Made by a program: the position numbers and the translations under genes. Shown here in pieces: positions 50 to 41,790 of a stretch of 64,000 bases of DNA (position 1 is its first letter; each line of letters starts with the position of its first letter). The notes under the pieces are model-generated. The model searched no databases. It was not told the DNA's origin and saw nothing but the letters and a program-made list of their open reading frames with translations. Source of the DNA: an uncultured Solirubrobacterales bacterium. GTDB lineage: Bacteria; Actinomycetota; Thermoleophilia; Solirubrobacterales; 70-9. The stretch lies in NCBI GenBank assembly GCA_963739545.1, contig CAVUAT010000011.1, forward strand, positions 536,317-600,316. Reading direction: 5' to 3'.

Positions 50-529
50 TCAGAGGGTGATGGCGACCGTGAGCACGGCCGCTGCCGCGAGCGCCGCGGC
101 GGTTCGGAGGTGGTTCCACGCGGTCCAACGCGTGACGTACTCGTCCCAGTAGACAGCTGCCTCGGCGTCCCCGGGGTTCAAGTCCGCGAGCCTGTCGTTC
201 ATCGGGACGTTCCCCGCCATCGTCGTCCCGATCGCGCCGACGAGATACAGCGCCGCGCCAGCCACCACCGCCGCCACGGGCCACTCACCGGGCGAAATCA
301 CAGCCCAGACGATCAGCCCGAGGCACGCGATCGCCGTGCCGAATAGGGCCGTCATGAACGCCGGGGTGATCACCACCACGTTGATCGACTGCATCGCGGC
401 GATCCCCTGCGCCGGCGGCAGCCGGCGCAGGGCGCCCATCACGAAGGTCGAGAAGGCGAAGAAGACGCCGGCGACCAGGCCGCACCCAAGCGCGGTCACG
501 ATCGCCGCCGCCTCGGCCGGACCGCTCAT
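50..529 (-). CDS. DUF1772-family (anthrone-oxygenase-like) integral membrane protein
   Basis: Last 159 codons of ORF 50..1237, starting MSGPAEAAAIVTALGCG. It has four hydrophobic segments and a GNVPMNDRL...WTAWNHLR pattern typical of DUF1772. Its ATG overlaps (ATGA) the stop of the upstream NmrA-like frame. Confidence 0.65.
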   Translation of the reverse strand: MSGPAEAAAIVTALGCGLVAGVFFAFSTFVMGALRRLPPAQGIAAMQSINVVVITPAFMTALFGTAIACLGLIVWAVISPGEWPVAAVVAGAALYLVGAIGTTMAGNVPMNDRLADLNPGDAEAAVYWDEYVTRWTAWNHLRTAAALAAAAVLTVAITL

Positions 530-1403
530 CGCGACGGGACTGCGTCGGGGTTCTGGTTCGCCTGTGTGTCGCTCGGCGTCCAGACGCCGGTGGCGGCCGC
601 GCTTCGGGCGTAGTCCTCGAAGCTCCTCGCGTCGCGGCCGAGGGCGCGACGCACGCCGTCGGTGGTGTCCGGCGTTTCGCCCGTCGACGACCTCGCTGAA
701 CAGGTAGTTGAACAGCTCGATCACCTCGGTCGGCACGCCGTGCTCGGTGAGCTCGGTTGCGTGCTCCTCGAACGAGACGGGCACGTAGCGGACCTCGCGG
801 TCCGCCGCCTCCGCGATCTCGGCCGCCGCCTCGGCGAACGTCAACGATCGCGGCCCGGTCAGCTCGTAGAGCTTGCCGATGTGCCGGTCGTCGGTGAGCG
901 CCGCAACGGCGACGTCGGCGATGTCGTCGGCGTCGACGAACGGGGTCGGAAGGTCACCGGCCGGGAGCCGGATCTCGCCGCTCAGCACGTGCTGGTGCAT
1001 GTAGTCCTCGCTGAAATTCTGCATGAACCAGGTCGAGCGCACGATCGTCAGCTCGGCGCCGGTCTCGCGCACCGCCTGCTCGCCGCGCTCGTTCTCGGGC
1101 TCGCCGCGGCCGGAGAGCAGCACCAGCCTCGGGGCCCCGCTCTCGATCGCCAGCTCGGCGAACGAGCGCACGGCCTCCAGTCGCGCCGGGGACGGCGATG
1201 TCCGGGTAGTAGCTGAGGTAGACAGACCCCACTCCATAGAGGGTGGGCGCCCACGTCGCGGCGTCCTCCCAGTCGAAGGGCGGCGCGCCAGTGCGAGAGC
1301 CGGCGCGCACGTCCAGGCCGCGCGCCTCGAGCCTCTCGGCCACCCGCCGGCCCGTCTTGCCGTTGGCCCCGAGGACCAGGATCTTGTTCGAAGTCGTCGT
1401 CAT
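526..1403 (-). pseudogene. NmrA-family NAD(P)-binding oxidoreductase with its reading frame broken twice
   Basis: The N-terminus MTTTSNKILVLGANGKTGRRVAERL (Rossmann motif) is in the frame of ORF 954..1541. The middle part ...LVLLSGRGEPENERGEQAVRETGAELTIVRSTWFMQNF... is in the frame of ORF 50..1237. The C-terminus DTTDGVRRALGRDARSFEDYARSAAATGVW... reads only in a third frame. The shifts lie near 1190-1200 and 670-680, both at short C/G runs. Confidence 0.7.
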
Positions 1404-1506
1404 CGTGTTCCTCCAATCGTTTTCATCGTGGGTCCAGTGTGGGCCGCCGGCGCGAGACTGTCTATGGCTTAGAGTCGCGAATGCATGCTCGAACGTCCAG
1501 GAAGTC

Positions 1507-2538
1507 ATGACGCGCGAGGAGTTCCGGCATACTCCGCGCATGGACCCAGCCCCACCCTCACCGCCGCCGGACCCGCTGGGCGAAGCCCTCCATTTCCTGC
1601 GAATGGACGGCGGCTACTACTGCCGCTCGGAGCTGGGCGCACCCTGGGGCATGACGCTCCACCCGATGCCCGGATACCTCTGGTTCCACGTCGCCACGAC
1701 CGGCGCCGCCCTCGTGGAGGTCGACGATGAGAACTCGAGGTGGCTGCACCCGGGCGACGTGACGCTCGTGCCGCACGGCAACGGGCACTCCCTTCGAAGC
1801 GAGCCCGGCGTCCCCGCGCCCGGGATCCTGGAGCTCGATCTCGAGCAAGCCAGCGACCGATACGACATCCTTCGCGCCGGCGAGGGAGGCACGCCGACCA
1901 CCCTGTTCTGCGGAGGCGTGCGCTTCGACCACCCGGTGGCGCGCAACCTCGTCGGGATGCTGCCGCGGATGATCCACATCCAGGGCTCCGACGGGCCCCG
2001 GGCGAGCCGGATGCACGGTGTGTTCGAGCTGATGGCGGCCGAGGCGAGGGAGTTCCAGGCGGGTGGCGAGGCGGTGATCACCCGGCTCGCGGACGTCCTC
2101 GTGATCCAGGCGATCAGATCGTGGATCGAGACCGCGCCGGCGGCGCGCGGCGGCTGGCTCGGCGCCCTGCAGGACCAGCAGATCGGGCGGGCGCTCGCGC
2201 TCATTCATCAGGATCCCGCGCGGGAGTGGACCGTCGCCTCGCTGGCGGGCGAGCTGGCGCTCTCGCGCTCGGCGTTCTCCGCGCGGTTCACCGAGCTCGT
2301 CGGCGAGCCGGTGATGCAGTACGTGACGCGGTGGCGGATGCAGGTCGCCCAGAGCGCGCTCGAGACCGAGGGCGCCACCGTCGCCGACCTGGCGAATCGG
2401 CTGGGCTACAGGTCGGAGGCCGCCTTCGCGCGCGCCTTCAAGCGCGTGACCGGCCTTCCACCCGGCGCTGTCAGGCGTCGCGCCGAGGCTCAGGCGGACC
2501 CGGCTTCCGCGCTCGCAACCGTCGCCGCACCCGCCTAG
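1507..2538 (+). CDS. AraC-family transcriptional regulator with N-terminal cupin domain
   Basis: ORF 1243..2538, with an internal ATG at 1507 (MTREEFRH). The C-terminal HTH_18 pattern is ...WTVASLAGELALSRSAFSARFTELVGEPVMQYVTRWRMQVAQ...LANRLGYRSEAAFARAFKR. It is divergent from the NmrA-like gene. Confidence 0.85.
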   Translation: MTREEFRHTPRMDPAPPSPPPDPLGEALHFLRMDGGYYCRSELGAPWGMTLHPMPGYLWFHVATTGAALVEVDDENSRWLHPGDVTLVPHGNGHSLRSEPGVPAPGILELDLEQASDRYDILRAGEGGTPTTLFCGGVRFDHPVARNLVGMLPRMIHIQGSDGPRASRMHGVFELMAAEAREFQAGGEAVITRLADVLVIQAIRSWIETAPAARGGWLGALQDQQIGRALALIHQDPAREWTVASLAGELALSRSAFSARFTELVGEPVMQYVTRWRMQVAQSALETEGATVADLANRLGYRSEAAFARAFKRVTGLPPGAVRRRAEAQADPASALATVAAPA

Positions 2539-28531: not shown

Positions 28532-28574
28532 TGGGCCGGGGTGGACTCGAACCACCGACCGACGGATTATGAGT
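28532..28574 (-). repeat. Direct repeat of the 3' part of tRNA-Met (att-like site, distal end of the island)
   Basis: 42 of 43 nt are identical to 41717-41759 (TGGGCCGGGGTGGACTCGAACCACCGACC[G/T]ACGGATTATGAGT). Confidence 0.8.
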
Positions 28575-31581: not shown

Positions 31582-31938
31582 ATGAGCGAGCTGATCGGAC
31601 TCACAGGGGCGTCGCTGGCGGGATACGCCTACCTCCCTCAGATTTCCCATCTCGTCCGCGAGCAATGCTCGGCGGGCATCAGCAGGAGCGCGTTCACGAT
31701 CTGGCTTCTGGCCTCGGTTCTGATGACGGTCCACGCGATCCTGCTGCCCGCGGTGGTGTTCATCGCGCTCGGAGTAATCCAGATCGGGGCAATCACGACC
31801 ATCCTCGTCTACAGCGCCCGCTACCGCGGCCTTGTATGTCCCACCCACCTAAGGAGCCCGGCCCACGACTCGGTTCAGCCGGCGCTGCATACGCCACCCG
31901 TGGGTGGAGTGCCAGGGGATGGGGAAAACCCCCCATAG
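31582..31938 (+). CDS. Small PQ-loop (SemiSWEET-like) 3-TM membrane protein
   Basis: Starts MSELIGLTGASLAGYAYLPQISHLV and has three hydrophobic helices. It is the internal start of ORF 31315..31938. Confidence 0.5.
   Translation: MSELIGLTGASLAGYAYLPQISHLVREQCSAGISRSAFTIWLLASVLMTVHAILLPAVVFIALGVIQIGAITTILVYSARYRGLVCPTHLRSPAHDSVQPALHTPPVGGVPGDGENPP
31919..31936. promoter_or_regulatory. Island box 3: ATGGGGAAAACCCCCCAT
   Basis: Lies 36 nt upstream of the ctaD ATG and overlaps the end of the PQ-loop gene. Confidence 0.5.
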
Positions 31939-31971: not shown

Positions 31972-33994
31972 ATGCCGGATCCAGCTCGAACCGATTTGCC
32001 GGCCCTCGCGACCGCCTCTCCCCCCCAACAGACGACCCGCGTCCCTCCCTCCCCGGGGCGCGGGTCGTCGCTCTCCGCGTTTCGAGGCGCGGGCTGGCCC
32101 CGGGCGTTGCTCGGGGCGCTCCTCGGCGGGGGCCTCGGCTTCGGCCTCGTCGTCGGGCTGCGAGCGATCGCCGGCCTGGAGATCTTCCAGACCGAGCAGA
32201 CCGGCTACCCGCACCTGATCGTCCCCGCGATCACCGCCCCGCTCGGCTTCCTGCTCGGGATCGGCTGCTTCGATTACTGGCTGCGCTGGGCGCCGGGAGC
32301 CCCGACCGTCCCCGACGACCACACCGATCACGGCGCCGACTCGTGGCGGGATTACCTGCGCTTCAACACCGATCACAAGGTGATCGGGATCCAGTACATC
32401 GTCACCACCTTCTTCTTCTTCTTCATCGGCGGCCTGCTGGCGATGGTGATCCGCGCCGAGCTCGCCCAGCCCGGCACGCAGATCGTCGATCCGCAGCGTC
32501 TACAACGGGCTCTTCTCGACCCACGCGGCGATCATGATCTTCCTGTTCGTGATCCCGGTCTTCGCCGGGCATCGCCAACTACGTGCTGCCGCTGATGCTC
32601 GGGCGCCCCGGACATGGCGTTCCCGCGCCTCAACGCGCTCTGCTTCTGGCTCCTGCCGTTCGCCGGCATCCTCTTCATCGCGAGCTTCCTCGTCCCCGGC
32701 GGCGCCTTCGACGCCGGCTGGACCGGCTACGCGCCGCTATCGACCGGGGCGCCGCTCGGGCAGTCGTTCTTCAACATCGGCGTCCAGTTCGCGGGCTTCT
32801 CATCGATCCTCGCGGCGATCAACTTCCTGGTCACGATCATCACCATGCGGGCGCCGGGGATGAACTTCTGGCGGATGCCGCTGCTGGTCTGGGCGAACCT
32901 GGCGACGTCGATCCTGATCGTCGGCGCGACGCCGTTCATCGCCGGCGTGCAGCTGATGGTCCTGTTCGACCGCGCGCTCGGCACGAACTTCTTCCAGGCG
33001 GCCGCCGGCGGCGACGTCATCAGCTACCAGCACATCTTCTGGTTCTACTCGCACCCCGCCGTCTACATCATGATGCTGCCGGGGTTCGGGATCGTCTCCG
33101 AGGTGATCTCGACCAACTCCCGCAAGCCGATCTTCGGCTACCGGCTGATGGCGATCTCGCTGCTCGGCATCGTCGTCCTCTCCTTCAGCGTCTGGGCCCA
33201 CCACATGTTCGTCTCCGGCATGTTCAGCTGGCTGCGCGTGCCGATGATGCTGACCTCGGTGCTGATCGCGATTCCGACCGGGATCAAGATCTTCAGCCTG
33301 GCTCGGCGACGCTGTTCAACGGCGTGATCCACACCAAGAGCACCGGGATGCTGTTCGCGCTCGGCTTCGTCTGCAGCTTCATCCTCGGCGGGATCTCCGG
33401 CGTGATGACGGCGATGGTGCCGCTCGACATCCACGTCACCGACACCTACTTCATCGTCGCCCACATCCACTTCGTGCTGTTCGCCGGATCGGTGTTCACG
33501 ATCTTCGCCGGCATCTACCACTGGTTCCCGAAGATGACCGGGCCGGATGTACGACGAGCGGCTCGGGCAGCATGCATTCTGGCTGACGCTGGTCGGCACC
33601 TGGGGCACGTTCGTGCCGATGCACTGGATCGGGATGGAGGGGATGCCGCGCCGGGTCGCCGACTACGCGGCCGAGTTCGGCAACTGGAACCTGTTCATCT
33701 CGGTGTTCGGCGTTCATGCTCGGCGCCGCCCAGCTGATCTTCCTCTACAACATGGTCGTCTCGCTGGAGGTGGGGGCCGAAGGCGCCGGCCGAACCCCTG
33801 GCGGTGCGAAGACGATCGAATGGCTCGTCTCCTCGCCGCCGCCGCGGTTCAACTTCGACGCGATCCCCCGCGTCGTCGGCGGCCCGTACGAGTTCGGCGT
33901 CCCCGGCGCCCGCCACGCGCTGCTGGCCGGCGACGAGGGCTACAAGCCTGCGCCGAGGGCTCGACCGGTCGGCGCCGGCAAAGAGCCGACCTGA
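31972..33994 (+). pseudogene. ctaD: Cytochrome c oxidase subunit I, split over at least six frame changes, with an extra two-TM N-terminal region of about 110 aa
   Basis: Consecutive CtaD segments are found in ORFs 31972..32595, 32534.., 32583.., 32614..33327, 32583..33737 (part), 33547.. and 33716..33994. Motifs are intact ([36 protein letters not shown]). No ctaC or ctaE is adjacent. Confidence 0.8.
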
Positions 33995-34912: not shown

Positions 34913-35890
34913 ATGACGACCTATCCGAGCGACGATCGCCGCCGAGACACGCGATCCCCCTCCGTTCACGAACCGGTACTGGTCGGCGTGGAGGGCTCGA
35001 AGCGCTCGGCGGACGCTCTCGCGCTGGCCGATCTGCTGAGTCCCCTACTCGGACGCTCGGTCCTGATCGCGTTCGTGCATCCGTACGGGAACGTGTCGGG
35101 CCTACTCGGGGAAGGCGAATACCAGCGACTCGTACGGAAGGTGGCCGAAGAGACGTTCCGCGACGTGCGGGAACACCTCCCCTCGGTCAGCGAGCGGGAG
35201 ATGGACCTCGTGTCCGATGGCTCCGCCGCGGCGGGTCTCCACGGCCTGGCGGAGCGAAAGCGTGCGTCGCTGCTCGTGGTCGGCTCTTCACACCGATCAA
35301 GGTTGGGGAGGGTACTTCCCGGCGGCACCGGCGAGCGACTGCTGACGGGCGCCCCGGCGCCGGTGGCAGTCGCGCCGGCCGGCTATGCAAGCGGGAGGCC
35401 TCACATCCGGACGGTGGGCTGCGCCTTCGATGGTTCCCCGGAGTCCCGCCACGCCCTCGAGTGGGCGGCCGCCATCGCGCGAGCGGCCTCGGCCAGCCTT
35501 CGGGTGATCGGCGTCCATGAGCGACTGCCCTCCGCGAGCGTCTCGATCGAGGGAGGGCTTCCGATCCGCTCCCTCAACGACCTACTTCACGCCGAGCAGA
35601 GCAAAGAGCTGGAGGAGGCAGCGGCGGGGTACGGCACGGAACTGGATGTCAGCGCGGAGCTGCTCGAAGGAAACCCAGCCAACGCCCTGAAGACGCAATC
35701 GCGGGATCTGGATCTGCTGGTGCTCGGCTCGCGCGGCTACGGCCCGCTGCGCGCGGTCCTGGCCGGGAGCGTTTCGCTGGCGCTGATGCGCTCGGCGGAG
35801 GCACCCATCGTCATCACCCCTAGAGGGACCGAGATCATCAAGTGGTGGACCGAGCCGCGATCCACCGCTGTCGGGAAGGTCGGCTCATGA
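34913..35890 (+). CDS. Universal stress protein, tandem Usp domains
   Basis: 325 aa with two repeats carrying VVGSSHRSRLGRVLPGGT and VLGSRGYGPLRAVLAGSV. Confidence 0.85.
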   Translation: MTTYPSDDRRRDTRSPSVHEPVLVGVEGSKRSADALALADLLSPLLGRSVLIAFVHPYGNVSGLLGEGEYQRLVRKVAEETFRDVREHLPSVSEREMDLVSDGSAAAGLHGLAERKRASLLVVGSSHRSRLGRVLPGGTGERLLTGAPAPVAVAPAGYASGRPHIRTVGCAFDGSPESRHALEWAAAIARAASASLRVIGVHERLPSASVSIEGGLPIRSLNDLLHAEQSKELEEAAAGYGTELDVSAELLEGNPANALKTQSRDLDLLVLGSRGYGPLRAVLAGSVSLALMRSAEAPIVITPRGTEIIKWWTEPRSTAVGKVGS

Positions 35891-36255: not shown

Positions 36256-36915
36256 CTAGGGCTGGACCAGCCCCCGCTTGATCGCGTATCGCGTCAGATC
36301 GACGCGGTTTCGCATCCCGAGCTTCTCGAGGATGTTGTCGCGGTGGCGGTCGACGGTGTTCTTAGCGATCACGAGCGTCTCGCCGACCTCCTCGCTGGTC
36401 AGACCCTCAGCGATCAGCTTGATCACCTCCAGCTCGCGCGGGGTCAGCGGGTCACCTGTGATCTCCTCCCCCCGCTGGGCACGCTCGAGGTAATCCTTGA
36501 CGAGCGCTGAGGCGGCCGCCGGGTAGATGAACGGCTCGCCTCGCAGCGCCCCGCGGCAGGCTTCGATCAGATCGCGGTTGGCCTCGGATTTGAGAACGTA
36601 GCCCGAGGCGCCGGCCTTCAGCGCCTCGAAGAAATACTGCTCGTTGTCGTGAACCGACAGCATGAGAGTGTGCAGCTCGGGTCGGCGGCTGTGAAGCTCA
36701 GCGGCAACCTGGAGTCCGGTCAGCCGCGGCATCGAGACGTCGAGCACCGCCAGGTCGAGCTCCTCGCTGATCGCGATCTTCAACGCCTCCTCCCCGTCAC
36801 TTGCCTCGACCACCACCTCCAAATCGGGCTGAGATTCGAGAACGAGCTTCAACCCGCTCCGGACGAGCTCGTGGTCGTCGGCGAGGAGTATCCGTGCGCG
36901 CAATGGAATCGTCAT
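36256..36915 (-). CDS. NarL/LuxR-family response regulator
   Basis: The receiver domain is ILLADDHELVRSGL...DLAVLDVSMP and the C-terminal LuxR HTH is LTPRELEVIKLIAEGLTSEEVGETLVIAKNTVDRHRDNILEKLG. Confidence 0.9.
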   Translation of the reverse strand: MTIPLRARILLADDHELVRSGLKLVLESQPDLEVVVEASDGEEALKIAISEELDLAVLDVSMPRLTGLQVAAELHSRRPELHTLMLSVHDNEQYFFEALKAGASGYVLKSEANRDLIEACRGALRGEPFIYPAAASALVKDYLERAQRGEEITGDPLTPRELEVIKLIAEGLTSEEVGETLVIAKNTVDRHRDNILEKLGMRNRVDLTRYAIKRGLVQP

Positions 36916-37910
36916 CAGGTGCGCACCAGGGGAAAACTGAGCATCACAGTTGTTCCGTTTCCGGATTGGGAGTCGATCGCCAAAGTCCCGCCCGCGAGCA
37001 GCGCTCGCTCGCGCATGCCCTCGATCCCGATCGTTTCGCCCTCGGGGCGATCGGGAATCCCACGCCCGTCATCGCTGACGGTGAGGTTGATCGCGCCGTT
37101 CGAGCCCTCCAGCTCGATCACGGCATGCGACGCCTGAGCATGCCGGAGAACGTTCGTCAACGCCTCCTGGGCCACGCGATAGAGGACCAACTCCTGATCC
37201 GAGGAGAGATCGGGCAGGTCATCGGAGAGACGACGCTCGATTCGCAGCCCGCCCTGGCGAGCTGCCCGGGAGCTGAGCGCGATCAGAGCGTTGATCAACC
37301 CGAGATCGTCGAGCGCCTCGGGGCGCAGCTCGCGGGCGATTCGTCTGATCTCATCGAGGGCGGAGTGGAGCTCGCCGGCGAGCACGGCCATTCGCTTCCG
37401 CTCGCCCTCGGGACCCTGCGAAGCGGCCCGTTCGATCTCGAGAGCCACCGCGGTCAGGGTCTGACCGGCCTCATCGTGAAGGGCCCGAGCGATTCGCAGG
37501 CGCTCCCGCTCTTGGGCGAGGAGCGCGGCGCGCGAGCCCGCACGACGTTCATCGGCCAAGCGGCCGAGCATCGCATTGAACGCGTTCGTGAATGCGGCCA
37601 GCTCGACGCTCTCGCTGGAGCCACCGATCCGTGCCCGCTCGGGGTGGCGCAAGTCGACCTCCCCCATCTCGGCCGCGAAGGTCCGAAGCGGCGCGAAAGC
37701 GCGACGGACGCGAATCGCGTTGACCGCCAGCATCGCCACAAACGCCAAGACCAAGATCAGGAGCTCGCCGGCGCGGATCGGGTGGCTGACGGTAACGGGT
37801 GTCACCACCAGGAGCACGAAGATCAAAGTGAGCAAGGCACTGCTTGAAAGGAGTGCCCGCCGCGCGATCGATCTCGATTCCCGGGAGGAGGGTTCGGCGC
37901 TGGAAGTCAT
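36915..37910 (-). CDS. Sensor histidine kinase (HisKA_3 type) with two TM helices and almost no extracytoplasmic loop
   Basis: The H-box is RIARALHDEAGQTL and the ATPase motifs are EALTNVLRHA and DDGRGI...GIEGMRERA. Its stop overlaps the RR start. Confidence 0.85.
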   Translation of the reverse strand: MTSSAEPSSRESRSIARRALLSSSALLTLIFVLLVVTPVTVSHPIRAGELLILVLAFVAMLAVNAIRVRRAFAPLRTFAAEMGEVDLRHPERARIGGSSESVELAAFTNAFNAMLGRLADERRAGSRAALLAQERERLRIARALHDEAGQTLTAVALEIERAASQGPEGERKRMAVLAGELHSALDEIRRIARELRPEALDDLGLINALIALSSRAARQGGLRIERRLSDDLPDLSSDQELVLYRVAQEALTNVLRHAQASHAVIELEGSNGAINLTVSDDGRGIPDRPEGETIGIEGMRERALLAGGTLAIDSQSGNGTTVMLSFPLVRT

Positions 37911-38040: not shown

Positions 38041-38354
38041 ATGGTCAAGATCGCGATCCTCTGCCACCCGTGCACGCCGGCCCCCACCGGCGACCTCGAG
38101 GATTGGCTTGAAGGTCAGCTCGACCAACTCCGGAAGGCCGCGCCCGTGGGCATCATCCGTCTGTCCGGCTGGCCCAGGGCCTCCCCGACACCGAGATCGA
38201 GGTCGGGTGGCTTGTCGAGCTGGAACTGCCCGAGGAATCCGTCCAGCTGGGACGCGATCGCCTTGTCAACGCCTTGGCCGATCTCGTCACGGATATGCGG
38301 TTCCTCGGGCTGCAGCCGAGCGTCCTGACCCCGAACGAGTGCGGGAATCCGTAG
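38041..38354 (+). pseudogene. Small hypothetical protein with one frameshift (apparent 1-nt loss in a C run near 38165)
   Basis: MVKIAILCHPCTPAPTGDLEDWLEGQLDQLRKAAPVGIIRLS continues in the -1 frame as RLAQGLPDTEIEVGWLVELELPEESVQLGRDRLVNALADLVTDMRFLGLQPSV... GC3 is coding-like in both parts. Confidence 0.45.
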
Positions 38355-41105: not shown

Positions 41106-41771
41106 GTGGGGGATGGCCGATCCCGGCCATCCAGAAAGGAGCCACCATGTCTTCGGAAGTCGCGATACCAACAACCGCAACGCGCCCACCCGCGCCCTGG
41201 GCACCTCTCGGGCTTGCGCCTTCGCGTTCGCGGGCGCGCCCACGAGCTCGACAGAGCGCTCGCCGGCAAGGTCCGATCGGTGCCGATGGTCGATCAGGCC
41301 GCCCGGGCCCTCGACCAGCTGAGCCGCAGGCAGCGGTGGACCGGCGAGAACGATCTCGTATTCGTGAACGCGGTCGGCGGCGTGGTCGAGGACTCCCGCC
41401 CTGCGGCGGCGCTTCTACGCCGCCCTGAAGGCAGCGGAGGTGCCCCGCCTGCGCTTCCACGACCCCGGCACACGTTCGGGACGCTCGCCGTGCAGGCCTT
41501 CGCGCTTTCCGATGTGAAGGCCTACATGGGCCACGCGGACATTCAGACGACCATGCGCTACGTCCACCACGTGCCGCAGCACGACGCCGCCGAGCAGCTG
41601 ACCAAGCTCTTGCAGGAGCGCACCGAGATCGACGTTGGGTGCGCGCCGGGTGCGCGCGACTTAGACAACGAGAGGGGAGCGGAGGCAGAAAGCCCGCCTG
41701 AGCGGGCAATTTCTGATGGGCCGGGGTGGACTCGAACCACCGACCTACGGATTATGAGTCCGCTGCTCTGA
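41106..41771 (+). pseudogene. Tyrosine-recombinase (phage-type integrase) remnant, C-terminal catalytic part only, frameshifted
   Basis: Reads ...RSVPMVDQAARALDQLSRRQRWTGENDLVFVN... then, in another frame, LRRRFYAALKAAEVPRLRFHD, then RHTFGTLAVQAFALSDVKAYMGHADIQTTMRYVHH. The N-terminal half is absent because tal ends at 41055. It abuts the 3' end of tRNA-Met. Confidence 0.7.
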
Positions 41772-41790
41772 CCAACTGAGCTACCGGCCC
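41717..41790 (-). tRNA. tRNA-Met (anticodon CAT; elongator-type or possibly Ile2)
   Basis: The minus strand folds as a cloverleaf: GGGCCGG TA GCTC AGTTGGTC AGAGC A GCGGA CTCATAA TCCGT AGGTC GGTGG TTCGAGT CCACC CCGGCCC A. No CCA is encoded. Confidence 0.85.

Follow-up and report, generated by a model that had tools for sequence, protein, structure and literature searches.

The stand-alone ctaD gene and its surroundings

The DNA analysed here, a stretch of 64 kb from a member of the Solirubrobacterales referred to as the window, carries on its plus strand at positions 31972–33994 a paralog of ctaD, the gene for subunit I of heme-copper oxidases. If read through, the gene would encode about 670 amino acids; as assembled, ten single-base extras spread it over three frames. 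Its start codon is uncertain, with an ATG at 31972 and homology from about 32002. An N-terminal extension of ~105 amino acids with two hydrophobic helices (32074–32390, plus strand) precedes the COX1 domain and is free of frame breaks. Such an extension had been described in an earlier note on this DNA as unusual. The extension and its helices are real, but the intact housekeeping ctaD of the same genome (COX1 domain beginning at residue 106, after an extension of ~105 residues) and all 11 orthologs from relatives have it as well, and it is thus a trait of the whole family. The extension (residues 1–105 in the housekeeping paralog) has no match in Pfam and may represent a fused small subunit.

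Directly upstream of ctaD, as in syntenic relatives, lies an intact gene for a PQ-loop membrane protein (31582–31935, plus strand). On the other side follow an intact and likewise syntenic gene for a universal stress protein (Usp; 34961–35833, plus strand) and, on the minus strand, the intact genes for a GerE-type response regulator (36259–36915) and a HisKA_3 histidine kinase (36918–37910), whose products share 95 and 92 % amino acid identity, respectively, with those of the syntenic locus L028. All syntenic neighbours between 29.8 and 37.9 kb, namely the genes for a sigma-like protein, a 159-aa protein, the PQ-loop protein, a 186-aa protein, Usp, a DUF488 protein, the regulator and the kinase, are each encoded in a single frame. 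Two of the nearest CtaD proteins are encoded in L028 (ERZ27311206 k141_6325813) and in a further locus, L029 (ERZ25039516 contig_1214), and the window is syntenic with both. In these two loci the neighbourhood of ctaD comprises genes for hemerythrin, a PQ-loop protein, Usp, a DUF488 protein, a GerE regulator, a HisKA_3 kinase, ferredoxin, patatin and cytochrome bd. This conserved neighbourhood of stand-alone ctaD genes in Solirubrobacterales resembles a low-oxygen or stress module. In the present genome it is located on an element integrated at a tRNA-Met gene; the left end of the element is marked by a 30-nt exact copy of the tRNA-Met 3′ end (28531–28560) and the right end by tRNA-Met(CAT) itself (41717–41790, minus strand), with the copy of the repeat beginning at 41716.

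Searching the whole genome with a COX1 profile, which also matched norB, revealed an intact ctaD at C11:905106-907013. The second ctaD operon that the earlier note had proposed to look for therefore exists, as an intact ctaC-ctaD...ctaE set at C11:903-907 kb. In the entire genome, C11:894 and 907 kb are the only locations of COX2 genes and COX3 lies at 903 kb, and the 64-kb window contains neither a COX2 nor a COX3 gene; hence the ctaD of the window is stand-alone. The missing ctaC and ctaE partners had been noticed before. They are indeed absent from the vicinity, but this is no oddity: it is the conserved, normal arrangement for this class of paralogs, which is intact in relatives. The window gene is a true second ctaD that stands alone, and its paralog class is found intact and in synteny in other Solirubrobacterales. 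A further heme-copper oxidase is encoded at C11:894068-895875 (302 bits to COX1, an open frame of 926 aa, a COX2-like gene directly upstream); this locus at C11:894.5 kb is separate from the ctaC-ctaD set, which lies at 905-907 kb.

Ten extra bases in an otherwise conserved gene

The stop-to-stop open reading frames distribute the CtaD segments over three plus-strand frames between 31.9 and 34.0 kb, so that no single uninterrupted frame covers the gene as assembled. Accordingly, the whole-genome profile search found COX1 (PF00115) in pieces in different frames at C11:568699-570030, with 252.7, 89.1, 51 and 24 bits; combined with their neighbours in frame these pieces reach 318 bits, above the curated PF00115 cut-off. 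An alignment of the DNA with the intact paralog (84 % identity) and 12 intact homologs shows ten one-base columns that are unique to the window gene, all of them between 32493 and 33805. In the same alignment the conserved core of the gene has no deletion relative to the 12 intact homologs. According to the homolog alignments, a first sub-cluster of three extras lies at 32493-32497, 32565-32570 and 32600-32604, followed by two extras at 33297/8 and 33307/8, separated by 10 nt, which together produce a net shift of +2. One extra is located in the motif CCGGGCC (33538–33544), and four more occur at 33709-33712, 33763/4, 33790-33798 and 33803-33805. The positions are stated as ranges, as several alternative removals yield an identical peptide. 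It had been considered that all extras fall between codons and duplicate a wobble allele, but this was dropped after all frame-restoring removals had been enumerated and the placement had turned out to be ambiguous at no fewer than five sites. Since half the sites are affected by this ambiguity, the codon phase of the extras in ctaD is not relied on here.

Six frame changes plus a locally scrambled stretch had been counted from the sequence alone. The gene is indeed split between frames, but by ten +1 events, and the apparent scramble consists of three of these within 45 nt. The impression that the shifts are mostly +1 insertions was correct and even holds for all ten. Their assignment to short G runs holds only loosely: at three sites a C stands beside GGG, and a homopolymer is extended at two of the ten. 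Some contexts recur: three sites have GGG-C, two have GGC-G, and two or three have C-TGG.

Skipping the ten extras restores a full-length CtaD reading without an internal stop. VAHIHFV and the other histidine motifs for heme and CuB can be read off the translations unchanged, as had been recognised earlier. The alignment of the repaired protein to CtaD orthologs, which had been put forward as a check, shows a full-length protein whose conservation lies in the range of intact genes: at 375 otherwise invariant columns the read-through has 6 private changes, compared with 0–23 in the 12 intact homologs, to which it is 80–83 % identical. There is no relaxed constraint in the window gene. The closest proteins share 86–89 % identity, are about 660 aa long and are intact. 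Among 5.8 billion public clusters no near-identical CtaD is present; the best match reaches 89 % with the full-length query and 85 % with a fragment. Furthermore, each of the 11 orthologs in relatives, and the gene in each of the two syntenic loci, forms one uninterrupted ORF. At the ten sites, 0/13 of these orthologous or syntenic genes carry an additional base, and neither does the paralog. Beneath the breaks lies an ordinary ctaD paralog, stand-alone and probably functional.

Frame breaks and duplicate contigs in the whole assembly

All 2.8 Mb of the assembly were scanned with a frame tracker, a seven-state Viterbi model of codon usage trained on 976 long ORFs, which recovered the switches in ctaD. 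A switch was counted if it occurred on the same strand and if the upstream frame stayed open for more than 60 nt past it. Genome-wide, 192 frameshift-like switches were obtained, 150 of the +1 type and 42 of the −1 type. They include 15 clusters of at least three switches, the largest with 18; that of ctaD is among the 15. Within the 64 kb of the window the tracker finds only one other frame break, near 1.18 kb, which bears out the statement that the indel density in ctaD is far above the window average. It divides an NmrA-like NAD(P)-binding gene (50–1541, minus strand) between two frames by a single +1-type break near 1177-1200; the N-terminal part of the gene product begins MTTTSNKILVLGANGKTG in one frame, and the remainder follows in the next. 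A small gene at 38041–38339 (plus strand), homologous to a 130-aa protein of L028, is also divided, with amino acids 1–66 in frame 1 and 43–100 in frame 3; this isolated break near 38.2 kb was found by synteny and is located on the same element as ctaD. A switch at 29.86 kb was rejected as a frameshift, as two separate ORFs are present there.

The assembly consists of two contigs of 0.96 and 1.59 Mb and twelve of 3.7–16 kb. Ten of the twelve small contigs (C1, C3-C10 and C13) are duplicates, 93–99.7 % identical, of stretches of C11 or C14, the duplicated part amounting to 89 kb (3.3 %). When the break zones were compared by BLAST with the rest of the genome, most of them had a second copy on a small contig, 93–99 % identical and rich in gaps. 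The duplicated 3.3 % holds 53 of 186 frame breaks, that is 0.59 per kb versus 0.051 per kb elsewhere (11.5-fold). In the paired stretches the main copies contain 117 single-base extras and the alternative copies 34; the corresponding numbers of frame switches are 47 and 3. Of the 117 extras in the main copies, 90 are not in homopolymers and 85 % are G or C, a spectrum which matches that of ctaD. By adjacent codon position (1/2/3) the extras in the paired zones number 19, 34 and 49, an enrichment at position 3 for which the placement is firmer than in ctaD. The mismatches between main and alternative copies lie to 70 % at codon position 3 and, being concentrated there, identify the copies as real biological variants and not as noise.

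Housekeeping genes are found on the alternative contigs. In the main copies, RNase J is divided between three frames (C11:452.7-454.4 kb), SecA between two, with a break near residue 865 of 935 (C14:81.0-83.8 kb), and UvrB also between two, with a break at residue 395 (C11:718.3-720.3 kb); intact copies of the three are found on the small contigs C13, C6 and C9, respectively. XseA and others are likewise distributed over two frames on the main contigs and intact on the alternatives. A true loss of RNase J, SecA, UvrB and the like is unlikely in a free-living organism. The ten small contigs are alternative strain versions that were binned together with the main sequence, and these duplicates may explain the reported contamination of about 3 %.

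The largest of the break zones (Z2) is the kdp operon, which is non-essential. This region (KdpA/B/C/D/E-like genes, L021; C11:513.5-522.5 kb) has no duplicate contig and falls into about 38 frame fragments. Its single-base extras number 87 versus 28 in the comparison with a genome of the same genus (G003), whose syntenic region (L031) has long ORFs. As the kdp zone is also devoid of an alternative contig, the lack of one for ctaD is not exceptional.

Origin of the frame breaks and comparison with known systems

The frame breaks in ctaD are best explained as consensus errors from collapsed strain variants and not as mutations; we put the probability of this reading at roughly 85 %. The assembly is probably a long-read metagenome assembly. 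Along some stretches, reads of closely related variants would have been collapsed to one consensus. Where the variants differ, misaligned reads could have led the consensus caller to keep an extra base, and the result would be clusters of single, mostly non-homopolymer G or C insertions that shred the reading frames. Three points of this account are inferred: the use of long reads, a shared origin of the ctaD stretch and the other zones, and the exact way in which the errors came about. They agree with published experience: collapsed allelic variants in a long-read consensus lead to wrong read alignments and to INDEL errors that resemble frameshifts (Cosentino et al. 2021, PMC8445201), frameshift errors are well known in long-read consensus sequences (PMC9262707), and unitigs in which strains are collapsed alternate with strain-resolved ones in the output of long-read metagenome assemblers (Strainy preprint 10.1101/2023.01.31.526521). 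The presence of two megabase-scale contigs together with short near-duplicates fits such an assembly alternating between collapsed and resolved stretches. The reading as consensus errors is favoured because the same +1-only signature as in ctaD recurs in about 15 zones elsewhere in the assembly and is enriched 11.5-fold opposite the alternative contigs, where a variant copy exists, and because housekeeping genes are broken on the main contigs and intact on the alternatives. The earlier note had left three causes side by side; a low-quality assembly and a heterogeneous population now appear to have acted together, and the very young pseudogene is disfavoured by the insertion-only, stop-free pattern and by the genome-wide occurrence of this signature.

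A true and very young pseudogene would mean that the accessory ctaD on the tRNA-Met element is really frameshifted, at all or some of the sites, and no longer yields one protein. Several observations point in this direction and at the same time against consensus errors. The breaks are confined to 1.3 kb of one gene with clean flanks and neighbours. This gene is dispensable, as the intact ctaC-ctaD...ctaE set is present on the same contig, and it is carried by an integrated element. The housekeeping ctaD, equally conserved, is unaffected. Moreover, an indel-free second copy is available for other zones, whereas for ctaD the nearest sequence is 89 % identical, and neither an alternative contig in the bin nor any independent sequence contradicts the indels. 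Against consensus errors, finally, the ten sites are only weakly and not significantly associated with regions where ctaD is locally variable (P=0.06). However, ten insertions of one base each, with no deletions and no accompanying substitutions, are a poor fit to neutral decay, as bacterial mutation is biased towards deletion (Danneels et al. 2018, PMC6054270). The varied, deletion-biased indels, stops or excess changes at conserved residues that decay would leave are not seen in ctaD, and about 15 zones elsewhere bear an identical signature, among them housekeeping genes with intact alternative copies. A pseudogene is therefore improbable, and the small weight it retains is mainly due to the abrupt end of the damage at the edges of the 1.3 kb, with clean flanks and a clean housekeeping copy.

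Consensus errors might also have arisen in a different manner, by recruitment of reads from the housekeeping ctaD or from ctaD genes of the community during polishing, which would have corrupted the consensus. This variant would account for the restriction of the damage to the conserved core, the flanks and the 5′ part, which is less conserved, being clean, and many ctaD genes of 80–89 % identity exist in the community. But in a three-way comparison, bases resembling the paralog are not in excess around the frame breaks, the equally conserved housekeeping ctaD is intact, and the response-regulator gene nearby, although more conserved (95 % aa identity to L028), is clean. Recruitment of this kind is accordingly a doubtful account, if slightly less so than the pseudogene. 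Very improbable, finally, is that the extras are real and that a full-length oxidase subunit is still made, the ribosome bypassing them by programmed +1 frameshifting or four-base decoding; we regard a localised mutational process that produces only insertions on particular stretches as just as remote. The fully open frame after the skips, the well conserved protein and the recurrence of some site contexts (GGG-C, GGC-G and C-TGG) speak for recoding. Yet none of the 13 orthologous or syntenic genes shares an extra, no motif is common to all ten sites, most of the identical codons elsewhere in ctaD have no extra, and the extras of the other zones are absent from the sister haplotypes.

If the breaks are consensus errors from collapsed variants, as preferred here, caution is needed in annotation. 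In this assembly, a cluster of one-base insertions marks collapsed strain variants, and the same probably holds for comparable metagenome bins from long reads. Genes in such zones should not be called pseudogenes; they require frame-aware annotation or strain-aware re-polishing. At least 15 zones are affected in this assembly, among them secA, rnj, uvrB and the kdp operon.

As for the gene itself, its location on a tRNA-Met element with stress-type neighbours suggests an alternative catalytic subunit that is used under stress. Stand-alone ccoN genes of the cbb3 oxidases of Pseudomonas aeruginosa are known as orphan paralogs of the catalytic subunit. The ctaD of the window resembles them as an extra subunit I encoded away from the genes of the other subunits, which presumably partners the subunits of the main operon, and the likeness to orphan subunit-I paralogs extends to the stress and two-component genes alongside. 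In contrast to the ccoN case, the present protein is an A-type (aa3-like) CtaD from Solirubrobacterales with a lineage-specific N-terminal extension of two helices.

With respect to the frame breaks, the mitochondrial cox1 of Perkinsus requires multiple programmed frameshifts, at sites that have one fixed motif in common and are conserved from species to species. The need for about ten +1 corrections in a cox1/ctaD gene is common to both cases, but in the window gene the sites lack a common motif, and the extras are absent from all orthologs. Another parallel is offered by bacterial pseudogenes that arose through neutral decay (PMC6054270), as here too frameshifts interrupt a dispensable copy carried by a mobile element; genuine pseudogenes differ in being deletion-biased and in having stops and missense changes, whereas ctaD has only +1 insertions, is free of stops and shows normal conservation. 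A parallel to the preferred reading is provided by assemblies with collapsed haplotypes (PMC8445201). That case concerns a diploid eukaryote and the present one a mixture of strains in a metagenome bin; the errors are here overwhelmingly non-homopolymer +1 insertions, in contrast to the homopolymer indels that are usually reported for Nanopore, and, unlike in the eukaryote, the ctaD stretch has no recovered alternative copy. In both systems, small indels truncate ORFs where variants were merged, and the ORFs are whole in the phased or alternative copies.
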